Source: Nitrosarchaeum sp.
GTDB taxonomy: Archaea > Thermoproteota > Nitrososphaeria > Nitrososphaerales > Nitrosopumilaceae
DNA: 64,000 bases
Direction of reading: 5' to 3'
NCBI GenBank assembly: GCA_965223865.1
Contig: OZ245020.1
Coordinates: forward strand, 1,056,001 to 1,120,000
The notes under the pieces are model-generated. The model saw only the letters and a list, made by a program, of their open reading frames with translations. It was not told the origin of the DNA and ran no database searches. A program made the translations under genes and the position numbers. This document shows, piece after piece, positions 160-24,811 of this stretch (within the stretch, counting starts at the first letter, position 1; every line of letters begins with the position of its first letter).

Positions 160-370
160 AGAAATTGTAAAAATTTGTTATCAGTGTTGATGTTTTGAGA
201 TTTGCCCTATGCTGATGGTAGAACTTTTGTGTTCTTTCCTGGCCATCAAATTGAATACAAAAGTGAACTACGTTATTCATGTTACAGGTGATTTGCGATA
301 TTGTTTTTAGATCTTCTTCTAAAATTATTAGTTTGCAGAATCTCGAAAAATCTAACAAAAAATTAAATAT

Positions 371-384
371 TTTCCACGTGGGAC
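371..384 (+). repeat. Remnant subterminal box TTTCCACGTGGGAC of the island end motif
   Basis: Exact TTTCCACGTGGG shared with 11002, 11088(rc), 12580(rc) and 24350; terminal box absent. Confidence 0.6.
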
Positions 385-452
385 TTAAAACTAATCCAAT
401 AAATGATTTTTAGTATAACAATCATAATTAATCATCACAGTTTCATCATTTT

Positions 453-2987: not shown

Positions 2988-3710
2988 ATGCAGTCAAAGC
3001 TTCGAGTCCACATAGCTGCAGTCGATCATCATATCGAAAGAATTGTAGAACCGATGATACGGCTCCGTGCAGACAAGGCATATCTGTTAGCATTTGGTGA
3101 AAATGATTCAGCAACAGAGTTTCTCAAAAAAACCAAAACCATACTAAAAAAGAACCACATAACCATCCAAGTTGAATATGTAGACCTTTGGGATCTGATG
3201 GCATGTGTTGGCAAGGCCCGAGACATAATTCACGATGAGAAAGAAAATCAGGTTTTCTTCAACGTTTCTGCAGGAACAAAGATCTGCGCAATATCATTTA
3301 TGCTTGCATGCATGCTTTGGGATTGCGAGCCCTATTATGCCAAGACAGAATACAATGAAATAAAAATTTCAAAAAAGATCATTCCAGAGAAAATCAACGA
3401 TGTCATTGCAATTCCCACCTACAAGATGATAACGCCAAAACCTGAATTTCTTCAGGTATTAAAAATTCTCAAAAACAATGATAATAAGATAAAGAAAAAA
3501 CATCTCATTGATCAACTAAAAAAACTAGAATTAATTTTCCCAATGGGTGGTGCATCTTTAAGTAAGCCTGCAGAGCACGGACAGCTAAGAACTATCTTAG
3601 AACCCATGATGAAGATGGGTTATGTGGATGTGGAAAACATTGGAAGAAACAGTTTTGTGTCTGTGACCAAACAAGGTGAGAACACCTTGGAAATATTTGG
3701 AGTGCCATAG
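2988..3710 (+). CDS. CARF-like + winged-HTH transcriptional regulator (HFX_2341/DUF6293-like)
   Basis: N-terminal Rossmann-like domain with FFNVSAGTKI motif; C-terminal wHTH (LEPMMKMGYV...VTKQGE). Confidence 0.8.
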   Translation: MQSKLRVHIAAVDHHIERIVEPMIRLRADKAYLLAFGENDSATEFLKKTKTILKKNHITIQVEYVDLWDLMACVGKARDIIHDEKENQVFFNVSAGTKICAISFMLACMLWDCEPYYAKTEYNEIKISKKIIPEKINDVIAIPTYKMITPKPEFLQVLKILKNNDNKIKKKHLIDQLKKLELIFPMGGASLSKPAEHGQLRTILEPMMKMGYVDVENIGRNSFVSVTKQGENTLEIFGVP

Positions 3711-6544: not shown

Positions 6545-6606
6545 GATTAAGATATTACATTTGTGATTTTATAAAATATTGTTTTTTTCACGTGAGTGTT
6601 ATTTTT

Positions 6607-6894
6607 TTAGTTTTCCAAAAAAATTATTTGTACATAAAATACAAAGTATAAACCACAACCTTGACTGCTGTCAAAATCAAGGCTATTTTCAGAATCTTGT
6701 TTGTGTTTCTTGTAAAAAAACTGGTTATTTCCATGTCTAATCTCTTTTCTCTTTGATTTCACTGCAATTTTGATTGCAACAAAGATGCCTCCCAACATAA
6801 CAATTATCCCTCCAATCAAACTTGCTTGAGAATTTTGCTGGTTTATTGTAAGTGTTGTTTGAATAATTACACCTATTCCCACTAGAAAAAACAT
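6607..6894 (-). CDS. Hypothetical membrane protein
   Basis: Two TM segments and a basic tail; C-terminus looks degenerate. Confidence 0.45.
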   Translation of the reverse strand: MFFLVGIGVIIQTTLTINQQNSQASLIGGIIVMLGGIFVAIKIAVKSKRKEIRHGNNQFFYKKHKQDSENSLDFDSSQGCGLYFVFYVQIIFLEN

Positions 6895-11000: not shown

Positions 11001-11100
11001 ATTTCCACGTGGGTCCAGTAATTAACCATCTAACTATATCCTCAGCACAACATGCATGGGGATATAGTTAGCGGTGTTTTTGTTGTACCCACGTGGAAAT
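11001..11100. mobile_element. Back-to-back casposon-like terminal repeats around a 14-bp spacer (tandem element junction)
   Basis: ATTTCCACGTGG-17nt-CTAACTATATCCTC | AGCACAACATGCAT (11044-11057) | GGGGATATAGTTAG-17nt-CCACGTGGAAAT; both arms have exactly 31 nt between terminus and CCACGTGG. Confidence 0.7.
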
Positions 11101-11202
11101 GGTTTGTAAGTTCAGAAATCTAACAGATAAGAAAAATTAGAGACGTATAAAAAACAACCAACTTGTCATCTTAACCAGTTCTTCTTTTAGACAAGTTTGT
11201 GC

Positions 11203-12528
11203 TTATGGTTCAGTGAAAAATATTCCACTGCCGCATTCTCCCTTGTGCTTCATGACAATATGCTCTGCATCTAGCATGCACATGTTGCCATAAGTCTTGT
11301 TGTTGACTCCACATACAGGATCATACTCCAAAATGCATGCGACAATGCGGGGCATCATGCTCCATCCCCTGTTTTCCAACTTTGATGCAGATTCTTGTTT
11401 TACACATGCAGGAGAACCGGTATGTTTGAAGACCAACTGCAATGGCTCTGCACATATGACATCACTTGCTGCAATTCCCGCATTTCCTTGTTGTGATGGT
11501 TTAAGATATGGTTTTGTTTTGCCATCCATTGTGCAAACTTTTCCCGGATATGCCCCAGGACCACACCTGTCGTCTAGAACGCAGATCTCATCTAGTGGAA
11601 CAAAACCTGGTGCGCAAAGACCCCCATATGGAACATGTCTTGTTTTGTCATATGGCACAAATTCTGGTTTTGTATCTGAAGATGGATTCTTGTATGATGG
11701 TTGCGATGTTTTTTCCTGCTTTGTTGTAGCATTGATTTGTTTGTCTTGCTCAGTTGTTGCTTTCAGGTAAAACTGCCTATCATTTGTTGAACCTGCAAAC
11801 TCTGCAACAACATCATAAAATCCACGAGAAGTTCCAAATGGGGAAGGCACAGATTGTGTAGTGTAATCCCATTTTGTATCATCCGATGTGTCTAGATAAT
11901 ACGAAAATTCGCCATATTCATCTAAACTAACTTCAGCTTCATGAAGTAATATTTTGCTGTTTTTTCCGTAGATTTTGAGCGTAACTGGTTCATCAGTACT
12001 CACTTCACTGTCATCAACAGAATGTCCATATCCGTAAATCTTGAGCATGTCGCCCTGCACATAATTTGCCTTGTCTGCATTCACACCTACGTGATTACCA
12101 AGTGAATTTTTTGCATGTTTTATTATTGCCTTTTTTTCTTGGTCTTTTTGATAGTGTGTTATGTCACTTTCAGTTAGTACATAATTGACACCAAAAATCT
12201 CCACAAATTCTTTACCTGACCCGCTCACGATTATCTTGTAAATCCCATCTTCCCAAGATGATGGTATTATGCGAGTCTCCATTCCAATAGAATCATAGGG
12301 GCCATAACTGTGACTAGAACTCATAATTTCACCTGACGGATGCACAATGATAATTGTAAGAACATGACCACCCTTATCCTCAATAAAGCCAGACATTTTC
12401 ACTACATCTCCGTCTGAATAGTTTTGCCGGTCAAGTGTAATGTAGTCTTCTTGAGCAAAAGCGTTGGCAGTCACCACCACTGCAGTCAAGACAAGTATCG
12501 AGGATAACAGTAGTTTTATCATGATCAA
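11203..12528 (-). CDS. Secreted modular protein: Ig-like repeats, Cys-rich region, CV...RGW motif and C-terminal Kazal protease-inhibitor domain
   Basis: Signal peptide (ANAFA); ACILEYDPVCGVNNKTYGNMC...KGEC Kazal signature. Confidence 0.85.
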   Translation of the reverse strand: MIMIKLLLSSILVLTAVVVTANAFAQEDYITLDRQNYSDGDVVKMSGFIEDKGGHVLTIIIVHPSGEIMSSSHSYGPYDSIGMETRIIPSSWEDGIYKIIVSGSGKEFVEIFGVNYVLTESDITHYQKDQEKKAIIKHAKNSLGNHVGVNADKANYVQGDMLKIYGYGHSVDDSEVSTDEPVTLKIYGKNSKILLHEAEVSLDEYGEFSYYLDTSDDTKWDYTTQSVPSPFGTSRGFYDVVAEFAGSTNDRQFYLKATTEQDKQINATTKQEKTSQPSYKNPSSDTKPEFVPYDKTRHVPYGGLCAPGFVPLDEICVLDDRCGPGAYPGKVCTMDGKTKPYLKPSQQGNAGIAASDVICAEPLQLVFKHTGSPACVKQESASKLENRGWSMMPRIVACILEYDPVCGVNNKTYGNMCMLDAEHIVMKHKGECGSGIFFTEP

Positions 12529-12549
12529 CGTGTAAGATTCTGATACAAA

Positions 12550-12591
12550 AGTGATGTTATAGAAAGGTTTGAAATTAGACCCACGTGGAAA
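12550..12591 (+). repeat. Degenerate copy of the island end motif
   Basis: ...GGTTTGAAATTAGACCCACGTGGAAA; about half of the 31 preceding bases match the reverse complement of 11013-11043. Confidence 0.55.
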
Positions 12592-12679
12592 AAAATACTA
12601 TGCAAAAAATAGTATACATATTATGAAATTACAAGATTATAGGGATCCTCTTAAATTGAACAATTTCATAGGATACTAA

Positions 12680-14401
12680 TTGCTTGTTGAATATGACAAA
12701 CCCTCAAAAAAATTTACTGATAGTATAAGACAAGGAATTACTGAAGAGATTTCAAAAGCAACCAATAGTGTCCAGAAGGGGAGATTATTCTTGAAATGGG
12801 TACTTACAAAAGCATTTCAGGCTACAATCGATGATGCAGATAATGGAATTTTAGATGGGCCAAATGATCATGGGATTGATGCAATTCTAGAAGTACAAGG
12901 AAGTGAAATGAGTTTTTTTAGAATTTTTCAAGCGAAGTATGGCAAGTCTCATAGTTCCGATGCAATCCAAGCATTTAAAGCAAAAATGGATGAATTTGTT
13001 AGACAAAATCCTAATGATTTGCCAGAAGGAAGAATTCGTGATGCCTTAATCAACATCAAAAGAAAAGGATGGGATGTAGAAGCAATCTATATTACAAATG
13101 AAAAAACGGATTTTCAAAGTAAGGATAATTTTCAGGTTTATGGTTTTGATCGAATTGTTAAAAAAATGTGGGAAGATATATCAGAACCAGCAGAAGGAAA
13201 AACAGAAAAAATTACTTTAGAAGAATATATGAAATATGATCATACAATCATAGGAGTAATTTCACTTCGTGAGTTAGGTGAGCTTGTTCTAAGAAGTAAG
13301 AAATACATTTTTGAATCAAATATTAGAAAATTTCTGCCAGTAAAAACCAAAGTTAACAAACAATTAAGAGAATCATTGAAGACAGAACCTGAAGAGGTGT
13401 TTTATTACAATAATGGAATTACAATAGTTGTAAAAAAAGTAAACGAATTGGGTGATGCTAAACTTCAACTTATATCTCCTCAAATTGTTAATGGGGCACA
13501 GACATCAAGCACGATAGCAGACATTGTTAGAGGGGATAGAAACATTAAAGGAAATATTCAGATTACAATCATTACAGAAGATATCAGAACAACACGAAAT
13601 AATATCACAAAATACAGAAATTCACAGAACGCAGTTAAGGGAAGAGACTTAATATCATTAGAAAGATTCCATGATTCGATTTATGGTCAACTAAAAGCAA
13701 AATTAGGATATTACTATGAACTACAGGCGGGCTCGTGGGAAGCAATGACACGTCAAGAAAGAGAATCTTACAAAGGAGATACAATTCTCAATAATTACCT
13801 TCCTGAAAACCATGAAATGAAAATACCAGCAAATGATTCTATTCAGGCTATGGCAGCTGCAATAACCCAAGATCCCGCAAAACCCTATGGGAGTATAAGC
13901 AAATATTTACCTGGTGGAACAGAATATGAAAAAATCTTCAAAGAAGAGGGATTAGAAAAAGAAGATGATTATAGATTATTGTTGTATCCTTATTTAGTAA
14001 AATCATATTGTGAAAAGGCATTCAATTATGGCAGTAAAAAAGCCAATATGGATGAAAAAAAATATGCAAGACTTCTCTTTGTTACTGCATACTTTATGGC
14101 ATTACAAAATCATATTCTAGATAAGAAAAGGAACTATAAAGAAAACCCAAAGTTGTTAGATCTGTATTTTGAAAATTTTGAGACAAATAAAAAATTATTT
14201 GAATTGACAGATAGTGTATTAGACCAATTCTTTGATCAAACTGAATTCATTAGGCAGGATGAAGATGGAAAAGATAAAATGACGTTACACAACTTCTTTG
14301 CAAGACATGTTTGGTCATCTGAAGCAAAAACAATCCTTCGAAATATTATGAAACGAAAAAAAGAAAAATTCAAAGAGATTAGAGTTGAATTTGAAAAATA
14401 A
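12680..14401 (+). CDS. AIPR family (abortive infection phage resistance) protein
   Basis: N-terminal DHGIDA..FQAKY nuclease-like part; ESNIRKFL, FYYNNGITIV, QIVNGAQTS, NSQNAV motifs. Confidence 0.9.
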   Translation: MLVEYDKPSKKFTDSIRQGITEEISKATNSVQKGRLFLKWVLTKAFQATIDDADNGILDGPNDHGIDAILEVQGSEMSFFRIFQAKYGKSHSSDAIQAFKAKMDEFVRQNPNDLPEGRIRDALINIKRKGWDVEAIYITNEKTDFQSKDNFQVYGFDRIVKKMWEDISEPAEGKTEKITLEEYMKYDHTIIGVISLRELGELVLRSKKYIFESNIRKFLPVKTKVNKQLRESLKTEPEEVFYYNNGITIVVKKVNELGDAKLQLISPQIVNGAQTSSTIADIVRGDRNIKGNIQITIITEDIRTTRNNITKYRNSQNAVKGRDLISLERFHDSIYGQLKAKLGYYYELQAGSWEAMTRQERESYKGDTILNNYLPENHEMKIPANDSIQAMAAAITQDPAKPYGSISKYLPGGTEYEKIFKEEGLEKEDDYRLLLYPYLVKSYCEKAFNYGSKKANMDEKKYARLLFVTAYFMALQNHILDKKRNYKENPKLLDLYFENFETNKKLFELTDSVLDQFFDQTEFIRQDEDGKDKMTLHNFFARHVWSSEAKTILRNIMKRKKEKFKEIRVEFEK

Positions 14402-14723
14402 TCAGGGTTAAAATCTTGAGAATAATTTTACTGATTCAGTAAATATTCCTGAAGTGGTGAAAATTCAGAATTTCCTAATACTCGTTTCATATGTAATCCT
14501 ACATTTTTTGATTTGACAGAATCACATAATTCAGACGCAATTAAATCAAGATCATATAATCTGTGAATTCTACGTTTCTCGTTAATAATATAATCAAAAA
14601 AATCCTGTTGTTGTGATTGCAGATAACAAAAAAATGATTGAAAAATATTTCATGATTTGATAAACCTAGAATTTCAAGTTCATAAGTACTTCTGATGTTT
14701 TATGGCATCCATTGTAGTGTATT

Positions 14724-15932
14724 CTAATTTCTTCTCTCAACCATTGACATGTTAGAGCCATCAACATCGCAGGCCCCAATCTTAAATCCAATTTGCTTGT
14801 CTCTGTTGTCAAAGTCAAACCAGTACACTAGGTGGGGGTCATTTGCTGGATAATTAGGAGCATGCTCAATATGTGTAAAGGTCACACTGTACAAATCAAA
14901 GTATGGAATGCCCTCTCTCGTAAACCTGTGGCTGTTGTCATGAATTGCCTGCATTCGCATCTCATCGGTCACAGGAAATCCACACAGGCTTTCATAATCG
15001 TTGGATTCTGGTTGCAGGTAATCTGAAAGTGGAAATTCATCAGGATTGACAGTAAAGCCAAATGTTATCTTCTCAATGGTCTTGCCTCCATAGGAGATGT
15101 CTACTGTATACAGGCCATTTTTCTGCCACTGGGGTCCTGCTGCATCAATCGGATATGAGAATTCACCTTCTCTTATATTTGCAAGCTGATCCACCTCTAC
15201 TAGGTCTCCATTAGGATTGATTACCTGGATAACTAATGGCATTATCTCATCATTGATGATGTTGCCTTTATCATCTTTGTAGTCTGTGAACCAGAAAAAT
15301 CCTTGAATGAGGATTTGGTCTCCAATCTTGTAATGGTCGCTTAAGCGCCAAAGAGACATGCCAGCAAGAACAGGCATCTCATCATGAGATGCCGTTTTCA
15401 TTATGGAGTTTGGATCGTGTCCTACCCATCCTCTCTCCATCAACTTGCTTGATGTCGCTTCAGAGACACATACTGCACTGCTATAGTCGGGCCTTACGAT
15501 TATCTTGTGGGCTGTATTGCATCCGCTCAGGGCTTTTCCAGAAAGATCATCAACTATGACAAATTTCTTGATTTGCGTGTCTTTGTGTGGTTGTCCGTTT
15601 ATCTCATACTCTGTATGGATAAGGAACTGGCCCGGATTTCTCATAAAGTATGCTTGGTCTGCAATGAATTTCGAGTTGCCGTCTACAAGGCCCGTGTGTA
15701 CCTTGTCTGAAAATTCATTTCCACTATCAATGTCCTCAAAGACAAACTTTATTGTTGCAGATGCCATCTTTTGTGATGGATTTTGGATGTAATCGTGAAG
15801 CGAGACTGCGTCATCTACTTGGTTATACGCAATGGCATGGTAATTTCCAGACGATTCTGCAAATGCGAAATTGTCAAGTACAAAGAATAAACTCGCAAAT
15901 ACCGTTAATCCGAAGAAAAGTTCAGTTTTCAT
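14724..15932 (-). CDS. Secreted protein with CV...RGW motif and Ig-like domain; ORF extends to 16010 into the repeat array, real start probably MKTELFF
   Basis: Signal peptide ending AFA; CNTAHKIIVRPDYSSAVCVSEATSSKLMERGW; VINPNGDLVEVDQL..GPQWQKNGLYTV. Confidence 0.75.
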   Translation of the reverse strand: MKTELFFGLTVFASLFFVLDNFAFAESSGNYHAIAYNQVDDAVSLHDYIQNPSQKMASATIKFVFEDIDSGNEFSDKVHTGLVDGNSKFIADQAYFMRNPGQFLIHTEYEINGQPHKDTQIKKFVIVDDLSGKALSGCNTAHKIIVRPDYSSAVCVSEATSSKLMERGWVGHDPNSIMKTASHDEMPVLAGMSLWRLSDHYKIGDQILIQGFFWFTDYKDDKGNIINDEIMPLVIQVINPNGDLVEVDQLANIREGEFSYPIDAAGPQWQKNGLYTVDISYGGKTIEKITFGFTVNPDEFPLSDYLQPESNDYESLCGFPVTDEMRMQAIHDNSHRFTREGIPYFDLYSVTFTHIEHAPNYPANDPHLVYWFDFDNRDKQIGFKIGACDVDGSNMSMVERRN

Positions 15933-15990
15933 GAATATGACCAATTTTTGGTTATCGCTTTTAGCAATTACCATGAAATTACACACACAG

Positions 15991-16510
15991 TTTTGGACAA
16001 ATCTTGACATTTGTAGACATTTGTGGATATTTCTGGATAAAATTGGACAATTTTGGACTTTTTTGGATAATGTCCAGAAATGTCCACCGGTAGAGGCTTA
16101 CGATAAAGCCTAGAGGCTTTCGATAGAGGCTTGCAAAGGCTTGATTTTTCTGATATCTTTCCGGTACATTTGAATTCTATCTGAATATCAATCCGGTAGA
16201 ACACATTATCAATCCGGTAAAATCATTTTTGTTTACCGGAATGATAACTATCAATCCGAACTAATCAAAACATCCTGCCGGATTGATAGAAAAATACACT
16301 GGAATGATAGATGACAGCACCGGAAAAATAAACTCTGTTATCTGAAAGATTACCATTCCACCGAATTGATAGAATTTATCTCCGAATTGATAACTTGACT
16401 CTCCGAAAAAATACCGAAATGATAAATCTGTTTTACCGAAATGATAAACCCCACACCGAATTGTTAATTCGTTCCATCGAATTGATGCCGAAAAGATGCT
16501 GGAAAAGCCC
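15991..16510. repeat. Composite phased repeat array (8x 10-mer GGACA-type, AGAGGCTT cluster, ~21-bp-period CCGRAWTGATA units)
   Basis: Directly visible tandem and inverted units; see findings. Confidence 0.8.
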
Positions 16511-16653
16511 CATTTTATGAGCAAAATCATAGAACTACTTATGAATCTCCAGATAAAAAAGGAAAAACGTGTGGATGGGAATTGCTACGGTTTTGTTATT
16601 ACCCTAATCGTATATGATGCTCATTCCAGACAAATAATGTGTGAATAGTGAAT

Positions 16654-17283
16654 TTATTTTTTTGAACTGTAAATGACATAAATTGTTCTTACCCATGTCT
16701 TTTTGATTTCTTTAGGATCTTTTCCGGCAAGTTTCTCTAAAAATAGGCCCCTAAACACTGCAATCATTCCATTTGCAATCTCTAGTAACTCTGCATCATT
16801 ATATCCTTCCAGTATCCCAATTTGTGGTCTTATTTGTTTAATGGATCCAACTACTATCCGTGCAATTTCTTTATCTTGCATTGTCATCATTTCTCTTAAT
16901 TTTGGATTGTTCCCAGACTCAATTCTTCCTTCAAGCCATAATCTTTCAAACTCACTTGGTTCTGAAGAGGTCAAGTCATAATATTTTTTCAAATCTTCAA
17001 ACATGTTTTCTCTTTTTTTGAACAATTTACCTCCTTTTTTTTCAAAAATCTCAAATACTCTCTGAAATTCTTGTTTAACACCCAGTCTTAGAACCTGAAA
17101 AAATAATTCTTCCTTACTGTGAAAATGATAAAACAACGAACCCTTACTTACCCCTGCAGCAGATACAATTTCATTCATTGATGTTTTTTGATATCCGTTT
17201 TTTGCAAATTTTTTTGTGGCTACCTTGATAATCTTTTTTTGTACCTGTGTAAGGGGTTTTTCATTTATGTTTAATTTCTCCAT
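16654..17283 (-). CDS. TetR/AcrR family transcriptional regulator
   Basis: KKFAKNGYQKTSMNEIVSAAGVSKGSLFYHFHSKEELF HTH. Confidence 0.95.
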   Translation of the reverse strand: MEKLNINEKPLTQVQKKIIKVATKKFAKNGYQKTSMNEIVSAAGVSKGSLFYHFHSKEELFFQVLRLGVKQEFQRVFEIFEKKGGKLFKKRENMFEDLKKYYDLTSSEPSEFERLWLEGRIESGNNPKLREMMTMQDKEIARIVVGSIKQIRPQIGILEGYNDAELLEIANGMIAVFRGLFLEKLAGKDPKEIKKTWVRTIYVIYSSKK

Positions 17284-17359
17284 ACTCTAATTCTTATTGC
17301 TAGTGACTCTTAATGATTTAATGTTTGTGATATTTTTTCATACAATAATATTACTGACT

Positions 17360-17381
17360 GACCGGACGGTCGATTTATATA
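17360..17381 (+). promoter_or_regulatory. Palindrome GACCGGACGGTC (putative TetR operator) adjoining TATA box TTTATATA
   Basis: GC-rich palindrome in the AT-rich divergent intergenic region, 2 nt upstream of a TATA box ~25 nt before the ATG at 17403. Confidence 0.65.
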
Positions 17382-17402
17382 ATATTGTGCAGATTTAATA
17401 AC

Positions 17403-18599
17403 ATGTCAACATCAGATGATAAAAAAATTGCAATAATTGGATGTGGAATTGCAGGTGCTGTTCTTGCAATGGCTTTACAAAAATGTGGAATTTCTAGTAC
17501 TATTTACGAATCACAAAGTGCAGAGGATAGCAGTGGTGGATGGTTTTTGTACCTTGGTCCCAATGGAATGGACGTATTCAAAACATTAGGGATGCAGGAA
17601 ACTGTAAGAGAACACGGTTATGAATGCAAAAACCTAGCATTTGAAAACAAACTTGGCATTCCCATAGCTAAGGTGGATACAACCCATGATGAACAAAAAT
17701 ATGGCTCACATGGAGTAGTCATTAAACGTTCGTCATTACATAAACTCTTACGTGAGGAACTTGAATCGCGTGGAATTCAAATAGAATGGAATAAGAAAAT
17801 AACCGACATCAAAACTAATGATTCCACTACAGTACTTTTCAAAGATCAAAGTAGCATTGAATGTGATTACATCATAGGATGTGATGGTCTTTATTCTCAG
17901 ACTAGAAAAATCATAATGCCTGATGCTCCTGTCCCCCGATATTCAGGCAACGTCCTTGCAGGTGCAATAACTCAAAGACAAATTAATGCCCCTGTAAACA
18001 GGTTGTCATTTCATTATGGAAAAAAAGCATACATGGTTTATTTTGTAACTCCAGATCATGAGGCGTTATGGGGTGCAGTAATTCCCGTTCCCGAAGAATC
18101 CCTCTCAGAAATAAAGTCCCTTTCTTATCCAGAATGGAGGGAAAAAGTATTGGATGAATATGAAAAGGATGCAGACTATTTCTCAAAATTCATTCAGGAT
18201 AATGAAAATATTAACCGAATTCCATTATATGACTTGGAATCACTTCCATCGTGGCATAAAGGAAATGTGTGTCTTGTTGGAGATTCTGCACATGCGATGA
18301 CTCCTCATGCAGGGCAAGGTGCATCAATGGCACTAGAAAGTTCCATTATTTTGGCAAAATGTATACGTGACATACCTGATACTCAAAAAGCATTTGCAAA
18401 ATTCCAGGAATTGCGAAAACCAAGAGTAGAACACATGATATTACAAGCAAGGAAGCAGGGTAAATTCTCCACAATGACTAATCCCGTAATGAAATGGTTT
18501 AGGGCAAAACTTCTTCCGTTGATGATAAAACGTGGTTCTAGTCAGTTAGATGAAATCTACAACTACAAAACTGATTGGGATAAAAAAATAGAAACATGA
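17403..18599 (+). CDS. FAD-dependent monooxygenase (FAD_binding_3 / UbiH-like class A)
   Basis: IIGCGIAG, IGCDGLYSQTR, LVGDSAHAMTPHAGQGASMALE motifs; ORF track start 17385. Confidence 0.92.
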   Translation: MSTSDDKKIAIIGCGIAGAVLAMALQKCGISSTIYESQSAEDSSGGWFLYLGPNGMDVFKTLGMQETVREHGYECKNLAFENKLGIPIAKVDTTHDEQKYGSHGVVIKRSSLHKLLREELESRGIQIEWNKKITDIKTNDSTTVLFKDQSSIECDYIIGCDGLYSQTRKIIMPDAPVPRYSGNVLAGAITQRQINAPVNRLSFHYGKKAYMVYFVTPDHEALWGAVIPVPEESLSEIKSLSYPEWREKVLDEYEKDADYFSKFIQDNENINRIPLYDLESLPSWHKGNVCLVGDSAHAMTPHAGQGASMALESSIILAKCIRDIPDTQKAFAKFQELRKPRVEHMILQARKQGKFSTMTNPVMKWFRAKLLPLMIKRGSSQLDEIYNYKTDWDKKIET

Positions 18600-18634
18600 G
18601 TTCAACGTCTGGGGCTTAGATTTAGGTAAGTAAA

Positions 18635-19702
18635 ATGGGAATTGAAGAAAAAATCAAGAATCATGTTACATCTGGGAAAAGTCCCGGAATTTCTGTTGGG
18701 TTAATCAATGAAAGTGGCATTCAAACTTTCAATTACGGTGAAATTAAAAAAAAATCAAATACGGTACCCACTCCTGATACTACTTTTGAAATTGGTTCAA
18801 TGACAAAAACATTTACTGCAATACTTGCAGTTCGATTACAACAAGAAGGGATTTTATCTCTTGACGAACATATAACTGAATTTTTGCCAGAGTTAAAAGA
18901 TTCTATGTTTGACAAAAATAATGTCACTTTATATCATCTTCTAACTCATACCTCAGGAATTTCCGAATTTTCCTTGTCTGTCTTTGTTTCACAAATGTCT
19001 TCAATAATGTTTACAGGAAAATCACACATTACTGAATATGAATACGATACAGAAAAATTTCTAAATTATATTTCTACATTAAAATTAAAAAATTTACCTG
19101 GAAGTACATGGATGTATTCAAATCTGGGTTTTGGTTTGGTAGGAAAAATACTTGAAAGAATAACTGGAAAATCATATGAAGATCTTGTAAAAAATCATAT
19201 TTGTAATGTACTTGATATGAAGAATACTGGAATTGATGTTTTAGAACCCTCTAAAAATGGGTTAGCAACTGGTTATTCTTTTAGGAGCGAACAATCAGAT
19301 TACTGGAATGTGCCTGCAATACAGGCCGCAGCAAGTTTACGTTCAACTACATCGGATACGCTAAAATTCCTGAAAGCGAATCTAGGTTTGAGCAAAACAA
19401 AACTTTCACCCGTTTTTGAATACTGTCAAAATACCAAAACCACTACAAAAATCCCCACATCTATGAAATTATTTACAAAATCTGTTGGAATTTTCTTGTC
19501 TACTTTTCGTATAGGGTGGTTTGTGTTTCCACAAGAAAATGTCGATGTTCTTGGACATGATGGTGGCACACAAGGGTTTTCTAGTTTCATGTGCATGAAT
19601 CTGCAAAACCAATCAGCTGTTGTTATTCTAACAAACAGAGCAATGAAACCTGTCCACAGATTAGGACTATCATTAATTAAAGAAATGGAAAATGAGAGTT
19701 AA
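18635..19702 (+). CDS. Serine hydrolase, beta-lactamase/AmpC-like family (paralog of 8818-9909)
   Basis: SMTK, LLTHTSG, YSN, HDG motifs. Confidence 0.9.
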   Translation: MGIEEKIKNHVTSGKSPGISVGLINESGIQTFNYGEIKKKSNTVPTPDTTFEIGSMTKTFTAILAVRLQQEGILSLDEHITEFLPELKDSMFDKNNVTLYHLLTHTSGISEFSLSVFVSQMSSIMFTGKSHITEYEYDTEKFLNYISTLKLKNLPGSTWMYSNLGFGLVGKILERITGKSYEDLVKNHICNVLDMKNTGIDVLEPSKNGLATGYSFRSEQSDYWNVPAIQAAASLRSTTSDTLKFLKANLGLSKTKLSPVFEYCQNTKTTTKIPTSMKLFTKSVGIFLSTFRIGWFVFPQENVDVLGHDGGTQGFSSFMCMNLQNQSAVVILTNRAMKPVHRLGLSLIKEMENES

Positions 19703-20714
19703 AAGATTCTTCAAGTATTTGAGCATCAGTATTGCCATTTTGATTTTAGGTTTTCTTGCTGTAGCACAAATTGCATATCAAAGTGTACCTCAAATCGAAC
19801 CTCCAGGTAAAATGTACTCTGTTAATGGTGGAGAAGTTCACATGTATTGTACTGGGCCAGAAGATAACAACAAACCAACCATCATCATCATATCTGGCGG
19901 AGGCACTCCTAGTTTTCTGTATTTTGATCTTCAAGAAAAACTCTCTGAAAATATTCGCACTTGCACATATGATACTGCAGGAATTGGGTGGAGTAAAGCA
20001 AATGATATTCCATATACTACACAAAACATGTCTGATGAATTGTATCAACTACTTCAAACTGCACACATTGATGGCCCAATAATCTTGGCAGGACATTCTC
20101 TTGGAGGAATTGTAAGCTTGATTTACAGTGACGAGCATGAGGAACAAGTTGCAGGAATTGCTTTTATTGATTCAAGCCACTATAATCAATTCGATTATTT
20201 TGGAGAAGAATATCGAGATGCGACATTCAATCAAATTGATGAGCATCTGCCAAATTTCTGGCTAATAGATCTAGGAAATAATCTTGGAGTTTTTAGACTA
20301 ATGGCCATCTTTAACACATCCATGACAGAAGAACAGGCAGAAGAATTCAAGATAGTGGATTCTCTTAATAGGTGGAATCCGCCATATTCTACAATGAAAT
20401 CCATGGCCAGTAATCTCAAGTTGTCTTTTGAACAAGGAAAAGAAGTACATTATGACAGAGGGGATTTGCCAATAGTTGTTCTTTCAGCAGCAGATCCAAT
20501 TGCAGGTGCTTCTCAAGAAATAGGAGGCGTATCTACAGAGGAGTTTAGAGAAGGTTTTGATGTACTTCAGAAAGACTTGGCAGCATTGTCAAGTAATGGC
20601 AAACACATCTTTGTAAATGGAACAAATCATATCAGCATAGTGGACAGTGATGAAACTGCAGATCATATTCTAAGTTTAATCCCTCTGATTGGAGAAAAAA
20701 TAGAAAATGGATGA
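19692..20714 (+). CDS. Membrane-anchored alpha/beta hydrolase
   Basis: N-terminal TM; YDTAGIGWS; GHSLGG nucleophile elbow; C-terminal His. Confidence 0.9.
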   Translation: MRVKRFFKYLSISIAILILGFLAVAQIAYQSVPQIEPPGKMYSVNGGEVHMYCTGPEDNNKPTIIIISGGGTPSFLYFDLQEKLSENIRTCTYDTAGIGWSKANDIPYTTQNMSDELYQLLQTAHIDGPIILAGHSLGGIVSLIYSDEHEEQVAGIAFIDSSHYNQFDYFGEEYRDATFNQIDEHLPNFWLIDLGNNLGVFRLMAIFNTSMTEEQAEEFKIVDSLNRWNPPYSTMKSMASNLKLSFEQGKEVHYDRGDLPIVVLSAADPIAGASQEIGGVSTEEFREGFDVLQKDLAALSSNGKHIFVNGTNHISIVDSDETADHILSLIPLIGEKIENG

Positions 20715-20961
20715 AGAAAACAAATTCTATCTGTCAAATGCCCTAAAAGAAACAATACGGGAAAAAGCAGACACTGGAAAAAATCAATTTATCTTTGTTG
20801 GAATTGTCGATGAGAATGATACTGATTACTATTACTATAGAAATACTGCAAAAGACGGATTGCCCATGATTAAGTTCACCGTTTACGATCGTGTCTGCCA
20901 AAATAAGAGACAGGAAGACTTGCTTATCGAGTCAATCTCAAATATCGTGTTCTCATTATAG
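20707..20961 (+). CDS. Hypothetical protein
   Basis: 84 aa, start overlaps the previous stop. Confidence 0.55.
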   Translation: MDEENKFYLSNALKETIREKADTGKNQFIFVGIVDENDTDYYYYRNTAKDGLPMIKFTVYDRVCQNKRQEDLLIESISNIVFSL

Positions 20962-21056
20962 ATGATCCAGTCAAAAAGTTCTTGCCAGAAAATGTCAAGG
21001 TTCCATCAAAAAGGATGGAAAAAAGAATAGAACTTTGATTGAGTCATTCTAATTTC

Positions 21057-21468
21057 AATCATAACAAAGTTACTATATCCTTAAGTTCAAACTTTGACGT
21101 CTTCAACATTAGAAATGAATTCTGATACAGATAGGCATTTCGTTTAAAATACATGATAAAATTGGCCAAAGGACACAGAGATAGAATATACATCAGGAAG
21201 GACATCCTCTTAAAATTGTATGACTCAGGAGAGATGAATCAAAGTAGATTACTAAGCGAGTGTGGGTTAAACAATTCAAAACACAAAGAAATCTTGGAGG
21301 ATTTAGCTAAAAATGGGTTTATAGAACACAAAAACGAGCTAGAAGGAAAAAAATCTATCTCGAAATACAAGATCACTCAAAAAGGAATTGAAATTCTAAA
21401 TGAAATTTTTGAACGATATGAACTATTATTTCCAAGAGGAGATAATGTTGAATCATAACAAAGTTACT
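21057..21468 (+). repeat. 18-bp exact direct repeat AATCATAACAAAGTTACT (21057-21074 and 21451-21468) bracketing a wHTH gene
   Basis: Identical 18-mers containing the palindrome TAAC-AAA-GTTA. Confidence 0.75.
21153..21458 (+). CDS. Winged-HTH transcriptional regulator (archaeal HTH_45/ArnR1-like)
   Basis: RDRIYIRKDIL...SRLLSECGLN...L..L..NGFI...YKITQKG. Confidence 0.85.
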   Translation: MIKLAKGHRDRIYIRKDILLKLYDSGEMNQSRLLSECGLNNSKHKEILEDLAKNGFIEHKNELEGKKSISKYKITQKGIEILNEIFERYELLFPRGDNVES

Positions 21469-21502
21469 CAATCAATAAGTATCATACAGGAGATAAGCTG
21501 CC

Positions 21503-22393
21503 ATGTTTAATTCTGACAATCAGAATAGAGGGAGAAAACGACAAAGCATTTTTGAGACTATTGACAGTGTAACATACCACCTCCATCTTTCAAAAAAGAT
21601 GTTTCTGATTATGATCATCACAGCAATGATTATTCCTCCTGCAGTATTAACTGGTGTAGTTATTGGTGGGGAAATGACAGATGGTGGACCAAGAGTGATA
21701 AAACTTAACTCCCTTGTAGACCAATTAGAAAACCGGGAAATATCATCACAGGAATTCGTTGATGAAACTCGACATGTACAATCAGCTCCTTTGTATGGGG
21801 GACCAAAAATAGGGTACTATCTTAATTTTGTAATTTGGGCTACCATGTTGTTTTGGATAGGTTATGGAATAAGACAATGGCTAATTCATTCAAGACTTAA
21901 CAGCAAATACCAGTCACTGAAAACTGCACAAAATTTGGATTTACAAAATACAAAGAGTAAAAGAAAGAACTTTTTTGAGATTGCAGATTACGCAATACAA
22001 GAGCTAAATTCTACCAAGAAAATATTTTTTATAATGTTGGCCTTGGCAGTAGTCATACCTCCACTGTTAATGACTGGATTTGCATTACTAGTAGTGGAGC
22101 CAATACATGCACCTCTTATGATCAAAACAGATGAACTGCTATTGCAATTAGAGAATGAGGAAATTACAGTAGAATCTTTTGTTGAGCAATACCGAGATAT
22201 CAGATCTTTTTACCTTCTGGGAAATGGCAAGTTTACTCCATTGCTTTATGTGGTTGTGATAAAACTGTTAATTTCATTATTTTGGATTTGGTATGGTATT
22301 AAGCAATGGTTATCACACACAAAATGGAACAAAAAATATGCGGAATTTCAGATAAAAGATGATGAAATCAATCATAAATTAGGTAAAACATGA
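21503..22393 (+). CDS. Membrane protein made of two tandem homologous halves
   Basis: SKKMFLIMIITAMIIPP/TKKIFFIMLALAVVIPP; QLENREIS/QLENEEIT; YGIRQWL/YGIKQWL. Confidence 0.75.
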   Translation: MFNSDNQNRGRKRQSIFETIDSVTYHLHLSKKMFLIMIITAMIIPPAVLTGVVIGGEMTDGGPRVIKLNSLVDQLENREISSQEFVDETRHVQSAPLYGGPKIGYYLNFVIWATMLFWIGYGIRQWLIHSRLNSKYQSLKTAQNLDLQNTKSKRKNFFEIADYAIQELNSTKKIFFIMLALAVVIPPLLMTGFALLVVEPIHAPLMIKTDELLLQLENEEITVESFVEQYRDIRSFYLLGNGKFTPLLYVVVIKLLISLFWIWYGIKQWLSHTKWNKKYAEFQIKDDEINHKLGKT

Positions 22394-22466
22394 GCTAAAA
22401 ATATCTATATTAATTTAGATAAAAGTTCTTTCCTTGGAAACAAATCATAACCTAATACATAATACC

Positions 22467-23033
22467 TTATTTGGAATTCTCCTCTATCCATTCTATAATT
22501 TCAAAGACGTGTGTGTCAGGCGGAAAAACTGGATAAAATACTTTCACTATTTTTGCGTCTTTGACAATCAGTGTGAGTCTTTTGTACATTGTTTTATCTT
22601 CCATCTGAAAGGTTGGAATGTCCAGTTTATCTTTGAATTCCAAACAGGCATCAGATAACAGTATTTGAGACAACCCTCTCAATTTTGATAACTTTGATAG
22701 TTTTTCTTTTGGTTGAGCTGAAACTCCAATTGGAATTGTATCGTATTTTAGCAATTCATCCTGATTTTGACTAATTGTGACGTTTTGAGGGGTACATCCA
22801 CGTGCGCCTGGAATATCATTCCATCCTGATGGCAAATCTTCTTCATTGATTGCCATCATTGGAAAGAAGTACAAAATCACAAATTTGTAGTCAAGATCAC
22901 AAATATTCAATAAATTTCCATCTTTATCTGAGAGGGTCATGTCAGGAATTATCTTTCCTACAAGATAATCGCATGCACCGTCATCTTCGGGTTTTGGAAG
23001 ATTAGCAGGAAGCTTTGCAAAATCTTTATTCAT
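22467..23033 (-). CDS. Peroxiredoxin/redoxin (AhpC/TSA, BCP-like); ORF track start 23084
   Basis: LPKPEDDGAC; ILYFFP...IPGARGCTPQN; KRLTLIV..KIVKVFYPVFPPDTH. Confidence 0.85.
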   Translation of the reverse strand: MNKDFAKLPANLPKPEDDGACDYLVGKIIPDMTLSDKDGNLLNICDLDYKFVILYFFPMMAINEEDLPSGWNDIPGARGCTPQNVTISQNQDELLKYDTIPIGVSAQPKEKLSKLSKLRGLSQILLSDACLEFKDKLDIPTFQMEDKTMYKRLTLIVKDAKIVKVFYPVFPPDTHVFEIIEWIEENSK

Positions 23034-23464
23034 TTGACCTTTCAGGAATTTTCTCTCATCTATAAAATTGTGTTTAGAAAACAATAATGATGCTATTTCA
23101 AATCTTCCAATTGGCCTACTCTGCCACTTTGCTCTCAGAAACAGAGACCATACTCATCTTTAGTATGATTCAGTAGTTTTGTTATCAACACAATTTTAGG
23201 TTCTGCCAATTTTTTCCATAATATGCTTGTCCCAAAAATTGAGAACAAAATTTATGCATTGAATTATCTCATAGCATCAAAGCCACCTAATACAGGGGAG
23301 CCTATCACCACTGCAAAAGTAACTATTATCCCTAATGCAGCAATTACAATACCAAAACGTCTGTTCATACAAAACATGGGATTGTTTTAGTTAAAAAGTA
23401 TCTTGATTATTTTTTTGGAAATTATGTTACAATTGCTTTTATAATAAATTTGAATTGAGTTGCA

Positions 23465-23722
23465 ATGATGGAAGAATATGAAATTACTTGTGTTAAGCAA
23501 GATTTTTTTGGAAACATAACGGATGTAAAAGTCAACGGGAAACAGCTCCGTTCAGAGACGATCATACATTGGTTACGAACTGAAAGATACAAGTTCTATG
23601 TGTTTAAAGGAGAACACAAAGCTTACGTTTATCCAAAAAGAAATTGGTTTTCAGGATGGTTTTTAACAACGGATCCACACAGTGACCAAGCAAACAACTT
23701 AGAATTTTTGTGTGAATGTTAA
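23465..23722 (+). CDS. DUF3892-like small protein
   Basis: YEITCV...FYV......L.TDP....NNL..L.EC pattern. Confidence 0.65.
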   Translation: MMEEYEITCVKQDFFGNITDVKVNGKQLRSETIIHWLRTERYKFYVFKGEHKAYVYPKRNWFSGWFLTTDPHSDQANNLEFLCEC

Positions 23723-23900
23723 AGATTCCAACAAAATCGACAAAAAAACACGCCATAACCACTTGTTATTCAATTTGATTAATCCGTTAAGTGAGAGTTC
23801 TTAGTTCAAGTGACAATTCTGTTGAAAATAATTTTAAAAAAATATCAACATCTATCATTTTTTGGATTATTATTTCCATGCATGTCTTTTATTTTACAAT

Positions 23901-24344
23901 CTAACCTGTAGTCAAAAACAATATTGCTCTTGCTATGTCACCTTTTGCCTCAACTAGTGCATTTTTTGCCTTTTCTCTGTCCACTCCTGCTTGTTGGGCA
24001 ACAAGATTGACATCTTCCTCAGAAAAAACAGGAATCTCGTCTTCCAGTACGCCAAATTTCTTTACAAGTTCTTCACTGTCCTGACTCATTACTAGATCAC
24101 TCCACGCAACCCCATTGTGATCTGAGACGTGGTTTATGCAGTATACTCCCCTATGGATCAGACAAAAATGTGTGGCATGTTGCTTGCACACATCACATTT
24201 TGCAGGAAATTCCATTTGATTAACATCAAAGGCGATATGTTTTCTAAAATCAAAGATACTGCATTCTACAGCATGTTCATCCACAGGTTTTTTCACTAGT
24301 CTAGATATTATTAGAATTTCCGCCTTATGGATTTTTTTTACCAT
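23901..24344 (-). CDS. Zn-finger protein fused to an archaeal NAC-type C-terminal UBA domain
   Basis: CDVC..ATHFC..H..YC..H..DH; [41 protein letters not shown]. Confidence 0.75.
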
Positions 24345-24349
24345 TTATG

Positions 24350-24405
24350 TTTCCACGTGGGTACGAAAAATATCCGCCTAACTATATCCCCCATCATGTT
24401 GTGCT
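24350..24405 (-). mobile_element. Casposon-like terminal repeat (24350-24391) plus 14-bp target-like flank (24392-24405); right boundary of the island
   Basis: Minus strand: AGCACAACATGATG | GGGGATATAGTTAGGCGGATATTTTTCGTAC CCACGTGGAAA; same 31-nt spacing and first 11 nt identical to the 11044 spacer. Confidence 0.7.
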
Positions 24406-24625
24406 CCCAATCAAATTTGAATCCATCAAAAATATTCTCTTTTATTGATGATATTGTTCAGTCTTACTAATACCTAATTATGATTATTGATTCGATAAAG
24501 ATTTTAGAAAGATACCTCGTATAATTTTAGAAGAAAATGACAATCTTACTAGATCATTATCCTACATACACAAAAAATACCGTATTTGGAACCCAAAACT
24601 TAGGGGTTCCATACAGTGGAGTGTA

Positions 24626-24716
24626 TGGACCGGATGGGATTTGAACCCACGACCTTTGCGGGAAATTCCTTACGCAGTGTGAGTGCGTTATCCAAACCAA
24701 ACTAGACGACCGGTCC
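24626..24716 (-). tRNA. tRNA-Val(CAC) with a 16-nt non-canonical intron (24655-24670)
   Basis: Acceptor GGACCGG/CCGGTCC-A; anticodon arm ACGCA-CTCACAC-TGCGT; T-arm GTGGG-TTCAAAT-CCCAT; BHB motif (TGCG/CGCA helix, TAA and AAG bulges); splicing restores the AGGTC variable loop and 75 nt. Confidence 0.93.
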
Positions 24717-24811
24717 AACAAATAAACAAAACAAGAACCTTTTTTGTCTTTAGGTTAGGCTGTATATTGCGATAACCTTGACCTTTTCTACTTCTACTCA
24801 AAATAATTATT

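Follow-up and report, generated by a model that had tools for sequence, protein, structure and literature searches.

Probable casposon ends on casposase-less cargo elements in a Nitrosarchaeum genome

Three ends of a shared two-box design lie within a 64,000-nucleotide stretch (the window, C1:1056001-1120000) of the genome of Nitrosarchaeum sp., and they are very probably genuine terminal inverted repeats (TIRs) of a casposon lineage of Nitrosopumilus and Nitrosarchaeum, the DNA that they bound being a patchwork of orphaned cargo derivatives of that lineage. The usual view of casposons is of rare elements, mostly present in single copy, from which the adaptation module of clustered regularly interspaced short palindromic repeats (CRISPR) descended. 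The lineage described here is prolific in abundant marine ammonia oxidisers, with several intact copies in some strains and only cargo-laden orphans in others. The genome under study (G000; 2.01 Mb, 4 contigs, 99.98% complete) was compared with others of the same genus (G030, G073, G091, G003, G054 and G107), with two relatives that hold autonomous casposons (G201, the genome behind locus L029, and G202, behind locus L076) and with 80 L-numbered loci from other genomes, which were taken for holding a TIR and are the basis of the end-context counts; a sample of 201 genomes of the family was also searched, and a separate exact scan covered all species genomes. Plain coordinates are window positions, whereas those with the prefix C1 refer to the main contig of G000. 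A two-box end consists of a terminal and a subterminal box, and a pad is the unit of about 32 nucleotides (nt), leader plus 14-mer, that precedes an end.

Each of the three ends has a terminal box, G[G/A]GGATATAGTTAG, and a subterminal box, CCACGTGG, at exactly 31 nt from the terminus, with a variable middle; an earlier sequence-only reading of the stretch had described them so, and all were found as stated. The terminal boxes occupy 11030-11043 (-), 11058-11071 (+) and 24378-24391 (-), and the first base of CCACGTGG lies 31 nt from every terminus (11005-11012, 11089-11096 and 24353-24360). Two ends stand back-to-back and sandwich the 14-mer AGCACAACATGCAT (11044-11057, +), and the third adjoins AGCACAACATGATG (24392-24405, -). 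The terminal motif, with at most two mismatches allowed, gives 4 matches against 0.39 expected, a number reached by 0 of 100 shuffles; CCACGTGGAAA, with at most one mismatch, gives 5 against 0.61, again reached by 0 of 100 shuffles. The extra CCACGTGGAAA sites, 371-381 (-) and 12581-12591 (+), are relic ends of the same kind. Contigs from three studies, one run of which may be the source sample, span the junction 11030-11071 without difference, and misassembly is therefore excluded. The ends, target copies and relics of the window are the following.

371..412 (-): relic TIR closing, on the right, a casposase-less element of 2.6 kb whose start, C1:1053838, precedes the window (nhmmer E 0.034)
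6580..6600 (+): relic right end (~6598), its degenerate subterminal box closing 1.1 kb with 88% identity to the leader-side end of C1:1337346-1349068
11002..11043 (-): two-box TIR, right end of the element to its left (box 11030-11043, CCCACGTGGAAA at 11002-11013; nhmmer E 9.3e-10 genome-wide)
11044..11057 (+): 14-mer AGCACAACATGCAT, junction copy of the target duplication, common to both back-to-back ends
11058..11099 (+): two-box TIR pointing right (box 11058-11071, CCCACGTGGAAA at 11088-11099; nhmmer E 8.4e-09)
12550..12591 (+): relic TIR oriented as the 11058 end (subterminal box 12580-12591 intact, terminal box degenerate; nhmmer E 0.0023, model positions 17-43)
24350..24391 (-): two-box TIR pointing left (box 24378-24391, CCACGTGGAAA at 24350-24360; nhmmer E 1.3e-10)
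24392..24405 (-): 14-mer AGCACAACATGATG, leader-proximal target copy, which aligns with other target copies
24406..24424 (-): leader GGATTCAAATTTGATTGGG, a degenerate tRNA-Glu 3' end (TCAAAT at -15 to -10; 8 bp between the position of the 7-nt motif and the 14-mer)

At the left edge, a 125-bp inverted repeat joins window 216-340 to C1:1053905-1054025. Across G000 there are about 16-19 ends, as detected with the terminal motif, the 12-mer CCCACGTGGAAA and a profile of the 46-nt end, and all 7 exact CCCACGTGGAAA sites fall in ends or relic ends. Most of these ends are preceded by about 32 nt in which the leader GTTCAAATTTGAtTGGG is followed by the 14-mer AGCACAACrTGyAT; about 12 such pads are dispersed over the chromosome, a repeated unit (for example 24406-24424 (-) with its 14-mer) that had gone unmentioned in the sequence-only reading. 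Ends at which the 14-mer is reversed always have a second, usually more decayed, end across it, and are therefore junctions. A further back-to-back TIR pair surrounds a divergent 14-mer, CACATATCCTGCAT, at C1:777382/777397.

The same ends recur in some members of the genus. Counts of the two-box pattern are 10 in G000, 15 in G030, 6 in G073 and 3 in G091, with 0 for a reversed control pattern, and leader matches, which co-occur with it, number 15, 4 and 3 in G030, G073 and G091. Neither pattern nor leader was found in G003 or G054, and the TIR pattern scored 0 in G107, where the leader scan was not made. The exact TIR scan of all species genomes returned 82 stretches, nearly all of them Nitrosopumilus and Nitrosarchaeum records. 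Under strict patterns, 60 of 106 classifiable ends in the 80 loci of other genomes lie in TIR-14-mer-TIR junctions, the arrangement claimed earlier from the window and the commonest end context elsewhere, and 29 lie beside a leader; the remaining 17 mostly have variant leaders by eye.

What ties these ends to casposons is that they flank autonomous copies on both sides in relatives. Co-occurrence with cas1 was found in L076, G201 and G202, and the Cas1-encoding elements share with G000 both the two-box ends and duplications of the same 14-mer, which bears out the proposal that the ends are casposon TIRs. The cas1 element of L076 terminates in a two-box TIR at a TIR-14-mer-TIR junction, and its Cas1 (L076 4165-5397; 410 amino acids; PF01867, 2.2e-58, model 1-282) finds its best solved-structure match in 6OPM (1.3e-70, residues 2-398), the family 2 casposase of Methanosarcina mazei (PMC8464041). 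These matches suggest that the casposase of the relatives is family-2-like, with a C-terminal extension that may contain a helix-turn-helix (HTH) fold. The sequence-only reading is thus supported in recognising a casposon; with their 410-amino-acid, 6OPM-like enzyme the autonomous relatives resemble family 2 rather than family 1 and its protein-primed PolB.

Full-length cas1 frames number three in G201 and four to five in G202. G201 contains three complete casposons, each with two-box ends on both sides and a leader on one: casposon A (18.4 kb) has flanking 14-mers that match at 13/14 positions, casposon B (21.6 kb) has a perfect 14-bp duplication, AGCACAATGGGTAT, and casposon C (about 21 kb) another, AGCACAACGTGCAT; the size range of autonomous casposons is accordingly given as 18-22 kb. 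The array of casposon C runs on into a 5.35-kb casposase-less element with both ends, and then into another junction. No internal pad was found in the three G201 casposons. The casposon core consists of Cas1, a winged helix-turn-helix (wHTH) protein of 221 amino acids, proteins of 171 and 164 amino acids (the latter matching an HNH PHROG, 1.6e-4) and one of 927-944 amino acids (DNA polymerase PHROG, 3.1e-9). In G030 a 10.85-kb element (L014 8440-19293) has the same ends and a perfect 14-bp duplication; of its cas1 the C-terminal part alone survives. In G201 a CCGAAyTGATA-like motif is repeated in clusters immediately past the casposon polymerase gene (L111 18000-18600 and L112 18050-18700).

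The target derives from a tRNA gene. The leader aligns with the 3' end of the tRNA-Glu(CTC) gene of G000, and in L034, where a tRNA-Glu(CTC) gene occupies 6613-6690, a TIR begins at 6698, 7 nt beyond the real tRNA. The first bases of the 14-mer are the last four nucleotides of the tRNA, and in euryarchaeal casposons the duplication overlaps the last tRNA nucleotides (PMC4046053). Within the leader TCAAAT starts at -15 and ends nine nt before the duplication, a placement that matches the requirement of the Aciduliprofundum boonei casposase for TCAAATC 8 bp upstream of the duplication (PMC6614799). Both L034 and the pad alignments thus show the family 2 pattern, integration at a tRNA 3' end with a leader motif from the T-loop region. 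In L020, L022 and L023 the Rfam covariance model for tRNA picks up true tRNAs only, and it finds none at the pads of G000, whose leaders are therefore pseudo-copies. The sequence-only reading had placed casposon targets at fixed, often tRNA, sites; here the target is a tRNA-Glu-like 3' end, present in G000 as pseudo-copies at about 12 dispersed sites. ARAGORN finds tRNA-Glu(CTC) in G000 and no tRNA-Glu(UUC), and atypical or intron-bearing tRNAs, including a 93-nt tRNA-Val(CAC), are possible.

Taken together, the lineage's casposase would recognise the pad, a degenerate tRNA-Glu 3' end with TCAAAT upstream and then AGCACAACrTGyAT, and would join two ...CCCC-3' ends to it 14 bp apart, so duplicating the 14-mer. 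New insertions would enter at the leader-side copy of the 14-mer and would leave TIR-14-mer-TIR junctions. In G000 all core genes are gone, the ends now bounding casposase-less cargo derivatives, and the window would hold at least two arrays facing each other: one running from a degenerate pad left of the window to the 11030-11071 junction and the element that starts at 11058, the other from the pad at 24406-24424 beside tRNA-Val.

The machinery is missing from the window, as the sequence-only reading had noted, and from the whole of G000. The best match to cas1 in this genome scores 12.9 bits and contains two stops. Six casposon proteins of L076, namely the casposase, the wHTH protein, two small proteins, the polymerase-like open reading frame (ORF) and one SIR2-like cargo protein, are without any tblastn match (E <= 1e-3) in G000. 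As for family B polymerases, G000 has the chromosomal copy alone, among housekeeping genes; PF03175 gives nothing above the cut-off, and its weak match at C1:1326481, considered as a casposon polymerase, is this chromosomal PolB.

Casposase-less elements with intact ends and duplications do exist in this genome. One, of 11.7 kb (C1:1337346-1349068), has a perfect 14-bp duplication; another (C1:130825-136378, 5,554 bp; L128, L129) combines a perfect 14-bp duplication with TIRs of a second type that match perfectly over 36 nt; its products include a NERD-domain protein and an ArsR/TrmB-type HTH protein, and no casposase. Perfect 14-bp duplications are present in these two elements, in the 10.85-kb element of G030 and in casposons B and C of G201, while the 14-mers of the window interval 11058-24391 are inverted and unequal. 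That some casposase-less elements, at least, owe their insertion to a casposase provided in trans is about as likely as not; no element was established at two sites, and G000 has no partner.

It is a serious possibility, if one falling somewhat short of an even chance, that all casposase-less units are simply decayed autonomous casposons, inserted by their own casposase and later stripped of their core genes. The G030 element with its C-terminal cas1 remnant would be an intermediate caught in the act, inactivated or remnant casposons beside intact ones are known (PMC4046053, PMC4779613), and many ends in the window are degenerate. On the other hand, two elements of G000 keep perfect 14-bp duplications, one of them perfect 36-nt TIRs as well, with no trace of core genes genome-wide, and in G201 the 5.35-kb casposase-less element with two ends sits beside an autonomous copy; a single clean deletion could still produce casposase-less elements with such intact marks.

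The interval 11058-24391, which the sequence-only reading had taken for one element at a repeated target, is a composite of truncated elements and not one transposon, because its flanking 14-mers are inverted and unequal, a relic end lies at 12550, and its parts are scattered in G030, the nearest complete relative, where they occupy several separate loci, often near ends. A single 13.3-kb non-autonomous element, its flank rearranged later, would account for two near-perfect two-box TIRs in inverted orientation, yet it is improbable, and already disfavoured, given 14-mers that are inverted rather than direct and differ at 3/14 positions, a third end in the same orientation as that at 11058, and the fact that no relative examined carries the interval as one unit. 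The polarity of the 14-mers makes it reasonably probable that two arrays meet here, one running rightward and including the 11044 junction, the other leftward from the pad at 24406-24424; an inversion may alternatively have produced the opposed arrays. Contig joints, among them those from 11071 to 12577 and from 24353 to 10363, were considered as excision products and rejected, being short-sided or links through the repeat boxes; matches confined to 24379-24421, which many contigs show, come from other copies of the repeat.

Several observations count against the reading of the window as arrays of casposon derivatives moved in trans. Ends occur in only 4 of the 201 genomes of the family sample, all of the same genus as G000 (Cas1 is found in 63 of the 201, a tally that counts the unpublished genomes G077 and G092, on which nothing else here depends), and the polymerase and HNH calls in the relatives are weak PHROG matches, with no Pfam and no solved-structure match. 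Since G000 encodes no casposase, its elements cannot move now; deletion of core genes after insertion, or arrival of whole islands by recombination, may fit as well as mobilisation in trans. The proposed pad of the left array (C1:1053805-1053838) is weak (nhmmer E 0.2), and its end is more decayed than the supposedly older one at 11058, which misfits simple leader-side growth. Among the genomes compared, none provided an insertion/empty-site pair for an element of the window itself, and no joint removing 11058-24391 was seen in assembled contigs, a weak test in that contigs drop rare forms.

Very improbable, and already disfavoured, is that the repeats are attachment sites of tyrosine-recombinase elements targeting tRNA-Glu, with the leader as the attachment core. 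The leader does derive from the tRNA-Glu 3' end, the real tRNA-Glu(CTC) of G000 has an integrase gene 556 bp away, and the window pad is about 200 bp from tRNA-Val; but none of the 5 integrase matches in G000 is within 180 kb of the window, and the elements have inverted-repeat ends with 14-bp direct duplications which in relatives enclose cas1 and no integrase. That the two boxes are primarily a dispersed promoter or transcription-factor site, as the palindromic CACGTG, a box 6 nt before a start codon (24344) and another (12581) between divergent genes might suggest, is refuted by the confinement of the pattern to ends and relic ends (7/7 exact 12-mers), by the back-to-back pair between convergent genes and by its absence from 197/201 sampled family genomes and two same-genus genomes, although a secondary promoter role within the TIR is possible.

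The dispersal of pads bears on how arrays arise. Three pads of G000 carry a 3' fragment of the aEF-2 gene, one at the true locus and copies at C1:283100 and C1:1349068; the copies are 83% identical to each other and 73-75% to the true locus. At C1:283100, G000 carries an 8.3-kb island opening with the aEF-2 fragment and a pad; the site is empty in G003 and G054, where it spans 64-72 bp, and G030 and G073 have the aEF-2 fragment and diverge beyond it; the edges of the island (C1:282922-291205) are similar only weakly and in an AT-rich manner, with no convincing duplication. G030 and G073 lack the pad in the flank orthologous to C1:1349068. At C1 136.4 kb the second pad, that of C1:130825-136378, lies 40 bp inside an older two-box end. 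Judged from these comparisons, pads are copied along with islands, because of the aEF-2-fragment copies, the empty sites in relatives and the pad inside an older end; read-through or transduction of the flank may be the route, which is a guess.

A second observation concerns C1:650167-650304 (L119), where a leader and a 14-mer are followed by 93 bp without TIRs, an identical 14-mer and an old TIR. The insert is identical at 69/80 positions to the 3' end of a small zinc-ribbon ORF (C1:1877806-1877886). A copy of the leader/old-end unit in G030 has one 14-mer and no insert, but its upstream flank differs and its orthology is doubtful. This pattern may be that expected from the integration of a short fragment by a casposase, with rearrangement as the alternative. 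It is the sole 14-mer-insert-14-mer unit found in G000 and about 100 loci; the CRISPR-like or integron-like array pictured by the sequence-only reading finds no support, and regular short repeats with short spacers were not found, there being one identical 14-mer pair within 3 kb in a pad context in that same set. We consider it a tentative and rather unlikely proposition that the casposase lineage copies pads with its elements, thereby seeding arrays, and that it inserted the TIR-less 93-bp fragment to give a leader-repeat-spacer-repeat unit; the idea is raised because pads occur only with the TIR family, a pad-led 8.3-kb island occupies a site that is empty in two relatives, and one pad lies 40 bp inside an older end. 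If true, the 93-bp unit would be a natural example of the proposed step from casposon to CRISPR.

Casposons, their TIRs, duplications of 14-15 bp, leader-dependent targeting, tRNA and aEF-2 targets, tandem arrays and decayed copies are already known (PMC4046053, PMC4779613, PMC6563490, PMC6614799, PMC8464041). Beside these features, casposase-less cargo derivatives, a tRNA-Glu target and dispersed target copies appear to be new, in that a literature search outside subscription journals and supplementary files returned none of the three. The TIR starts that the sequence-only reading gave for other casposons have 0 occurrences in the main text of PMC6614799.

The closest known systems are the family 2 casposons (AciBoo-C1 of A. 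boonei, those of M. mazei and NitNCS1-C1 of Nitrosotalea). Their resemblance to the autonomous relatives extends to the 6OPM-like casposase with its C-terminal extension, to the core of Cas1, HTH, HNH-like protein and polymerase, the TIRs and the 14-bp duplication (PMC4046053, PMC6614799, PMC6563490), and to a target at a tRNA 3' end, with the duplication overlapping the last nucleotides and the TCAAAT leader motif 8 bp upstream. They differ in that the target here is tRNA-Glu-like and mostly a pseudo-copy; that 3-5 intact copies and up to 15 ends per genome occur here at dispersed pads as against one or two sites there; that the polymerase of the relatives is unrecognised by Pfam PolB models; and that every member in G000 lacks all core genes.

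Family 1 casposons of thaumarchaea (NitAR1-C1 and NitNF5-C1/C2, at the aEF-2 3' end) share the host group, and tandem integration with a common duplication has been described for them (PMC6563490). A further likeness lies in the pads of G000, one of which is 64 nt past the aEF-2 stop and two of which, as copies, include a piece of the aEF-2 3' end. However, casposase type, TIR, leader and duplication all differ, the element of N. koreensis, for instance, having a 13-bp duplication, an ATAA ruler and a TTT leader (PMC8464041). In place of the compact casposase, protein-primed PolB and aEF-2 target of family 1 we find a long-type casposase in the relatives, no PF03175 match above the cut-off and an aEF-2 fragment at 3/7 G000 pads against 0/35 pads in other genomes. 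In G003 a Cas1 of 331 amino acids is encoded about 550 bp past the aEF-2 stop, with an ORF of 147 amino acids before it (L024 4271-7680) and a 22-nt direct repeat (82% identity) whose copies are 3.5 kb apart; the vicinity has no large polymerase ORF. The locus may represent a small family-1-type casposon that lacks PolB; TIRs and a duplication were looked for there and were not resolved.

Other systems are more distant. Tandem casposon arrays and Tn7-like islands share a reused target, end-duplication-end junctions and inactivated members (PMC4779613, PMC4046053), but here the target exists in about 12 dispersed copies, and only together with the element family. Non-autonomous DNA transposons resembling miniature inverted-repeat transposable elements likewise have the ends of an autonomous family, a target duplication and no transposase; the present units differ in being kilobase-sized with varied cargo, and their transposition in trans is conjectural. 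CRISPR arrays have in common a Cas1-family integrase, a leader and leader-side growth by duplication of a short repeat, whereas the units here are kilobases long with TIRs of their own, irregularly spaced, and give no sign of transcript processing. The target site behaves as a component of the mobile system, and if casposase-less elements do move in trans and pads can accept short foreign fragments, the lineage would offer a natural system in which to test how a casposase might have become a spacer integrase.

Cargo had been described as detoxification, defence and surface functions, and Pfam and PADLOC agree in finding detoxification-like, defence and secreted proteins. Within and just beyond the composite interval the features are as follows.

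11203-12528 (-): secreted protein with a Kazal domain (Pfam)
12680-14401 (+): AIPR/AbiU-like abortive-infection protein (Pfam; PADLOC AbiU 1.3e-41)
14724-16010 (-): 428-amino-acid protein of unknown kind, closing the cargo stretch 11203..16010
16654..20961: cargo module of a TetR regulator, a flavin adenine dinucleotide (FAD) monooxygenase, a beta-lactamase-fold hydrolase, an alpha/beta hydrolase and a small ORF
21153..24344: cargo wHTH protein, unknown 296-amino-acid protein, redoxin/AhpC-like protein and 147-amino-acid UBA-domain protein
24625..24717 (-): tRNA-Val(CAC), 93 nt; synteny with all five same-genus genomes resumes only here

Such cargo is found beside TIRs elsewhere. Window 16654-20714 is paralogous to the cargo of C1:1337346-1349068, the module of TetR regulator, FAD monooxygenase and hydrolase sits just inside a TIR in L038, and in L037, L041 and casposon A of G201 the gene closest to the TIR is a redoxin homologue. 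Homologues in the TIR-selected loci were found for 17 of 23 ORFs of window 1-24400 against 8 of 31 of 25000-64000 (Fisher p 0.0008, which overstates the case, related genomes not being independent). On this evidence of homology, the cargo appears to travel with the two-box ends. The UBA-domain gene (23901-24344, -) has its start codon 6 nt past the subterminal box, and over its first 136 bp it shares 81% identity with a gene at C1:556357-556492; by that identity it is a cargo copy of a host gene. It is unrelated to the gene beside cas1 in G003, likewise of 147 amino acids. Regulator-oxygenase-hydrolase modules, an abortive-infection gene, redoxins and transporters make the cargo adaptive, and a good share of these archaea's flexible genome is therefore marked by casposon ends.

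Two further observations concern the left part of the window and its flank. A CARF-wHTH (Csa3-like) protein is encoded at 2988-3710 (+; PADLOC CARF3 1.8e-56) in a genome without detected cas1. Left of the window, a 16.7-kb block (L017 1-16732, C1:1036001-1052732) is 98% identical to G030 C1:115334-132068, core genes being about 93% identical, and it has a different genomic context in G030, which suggests recent exchange of an island.

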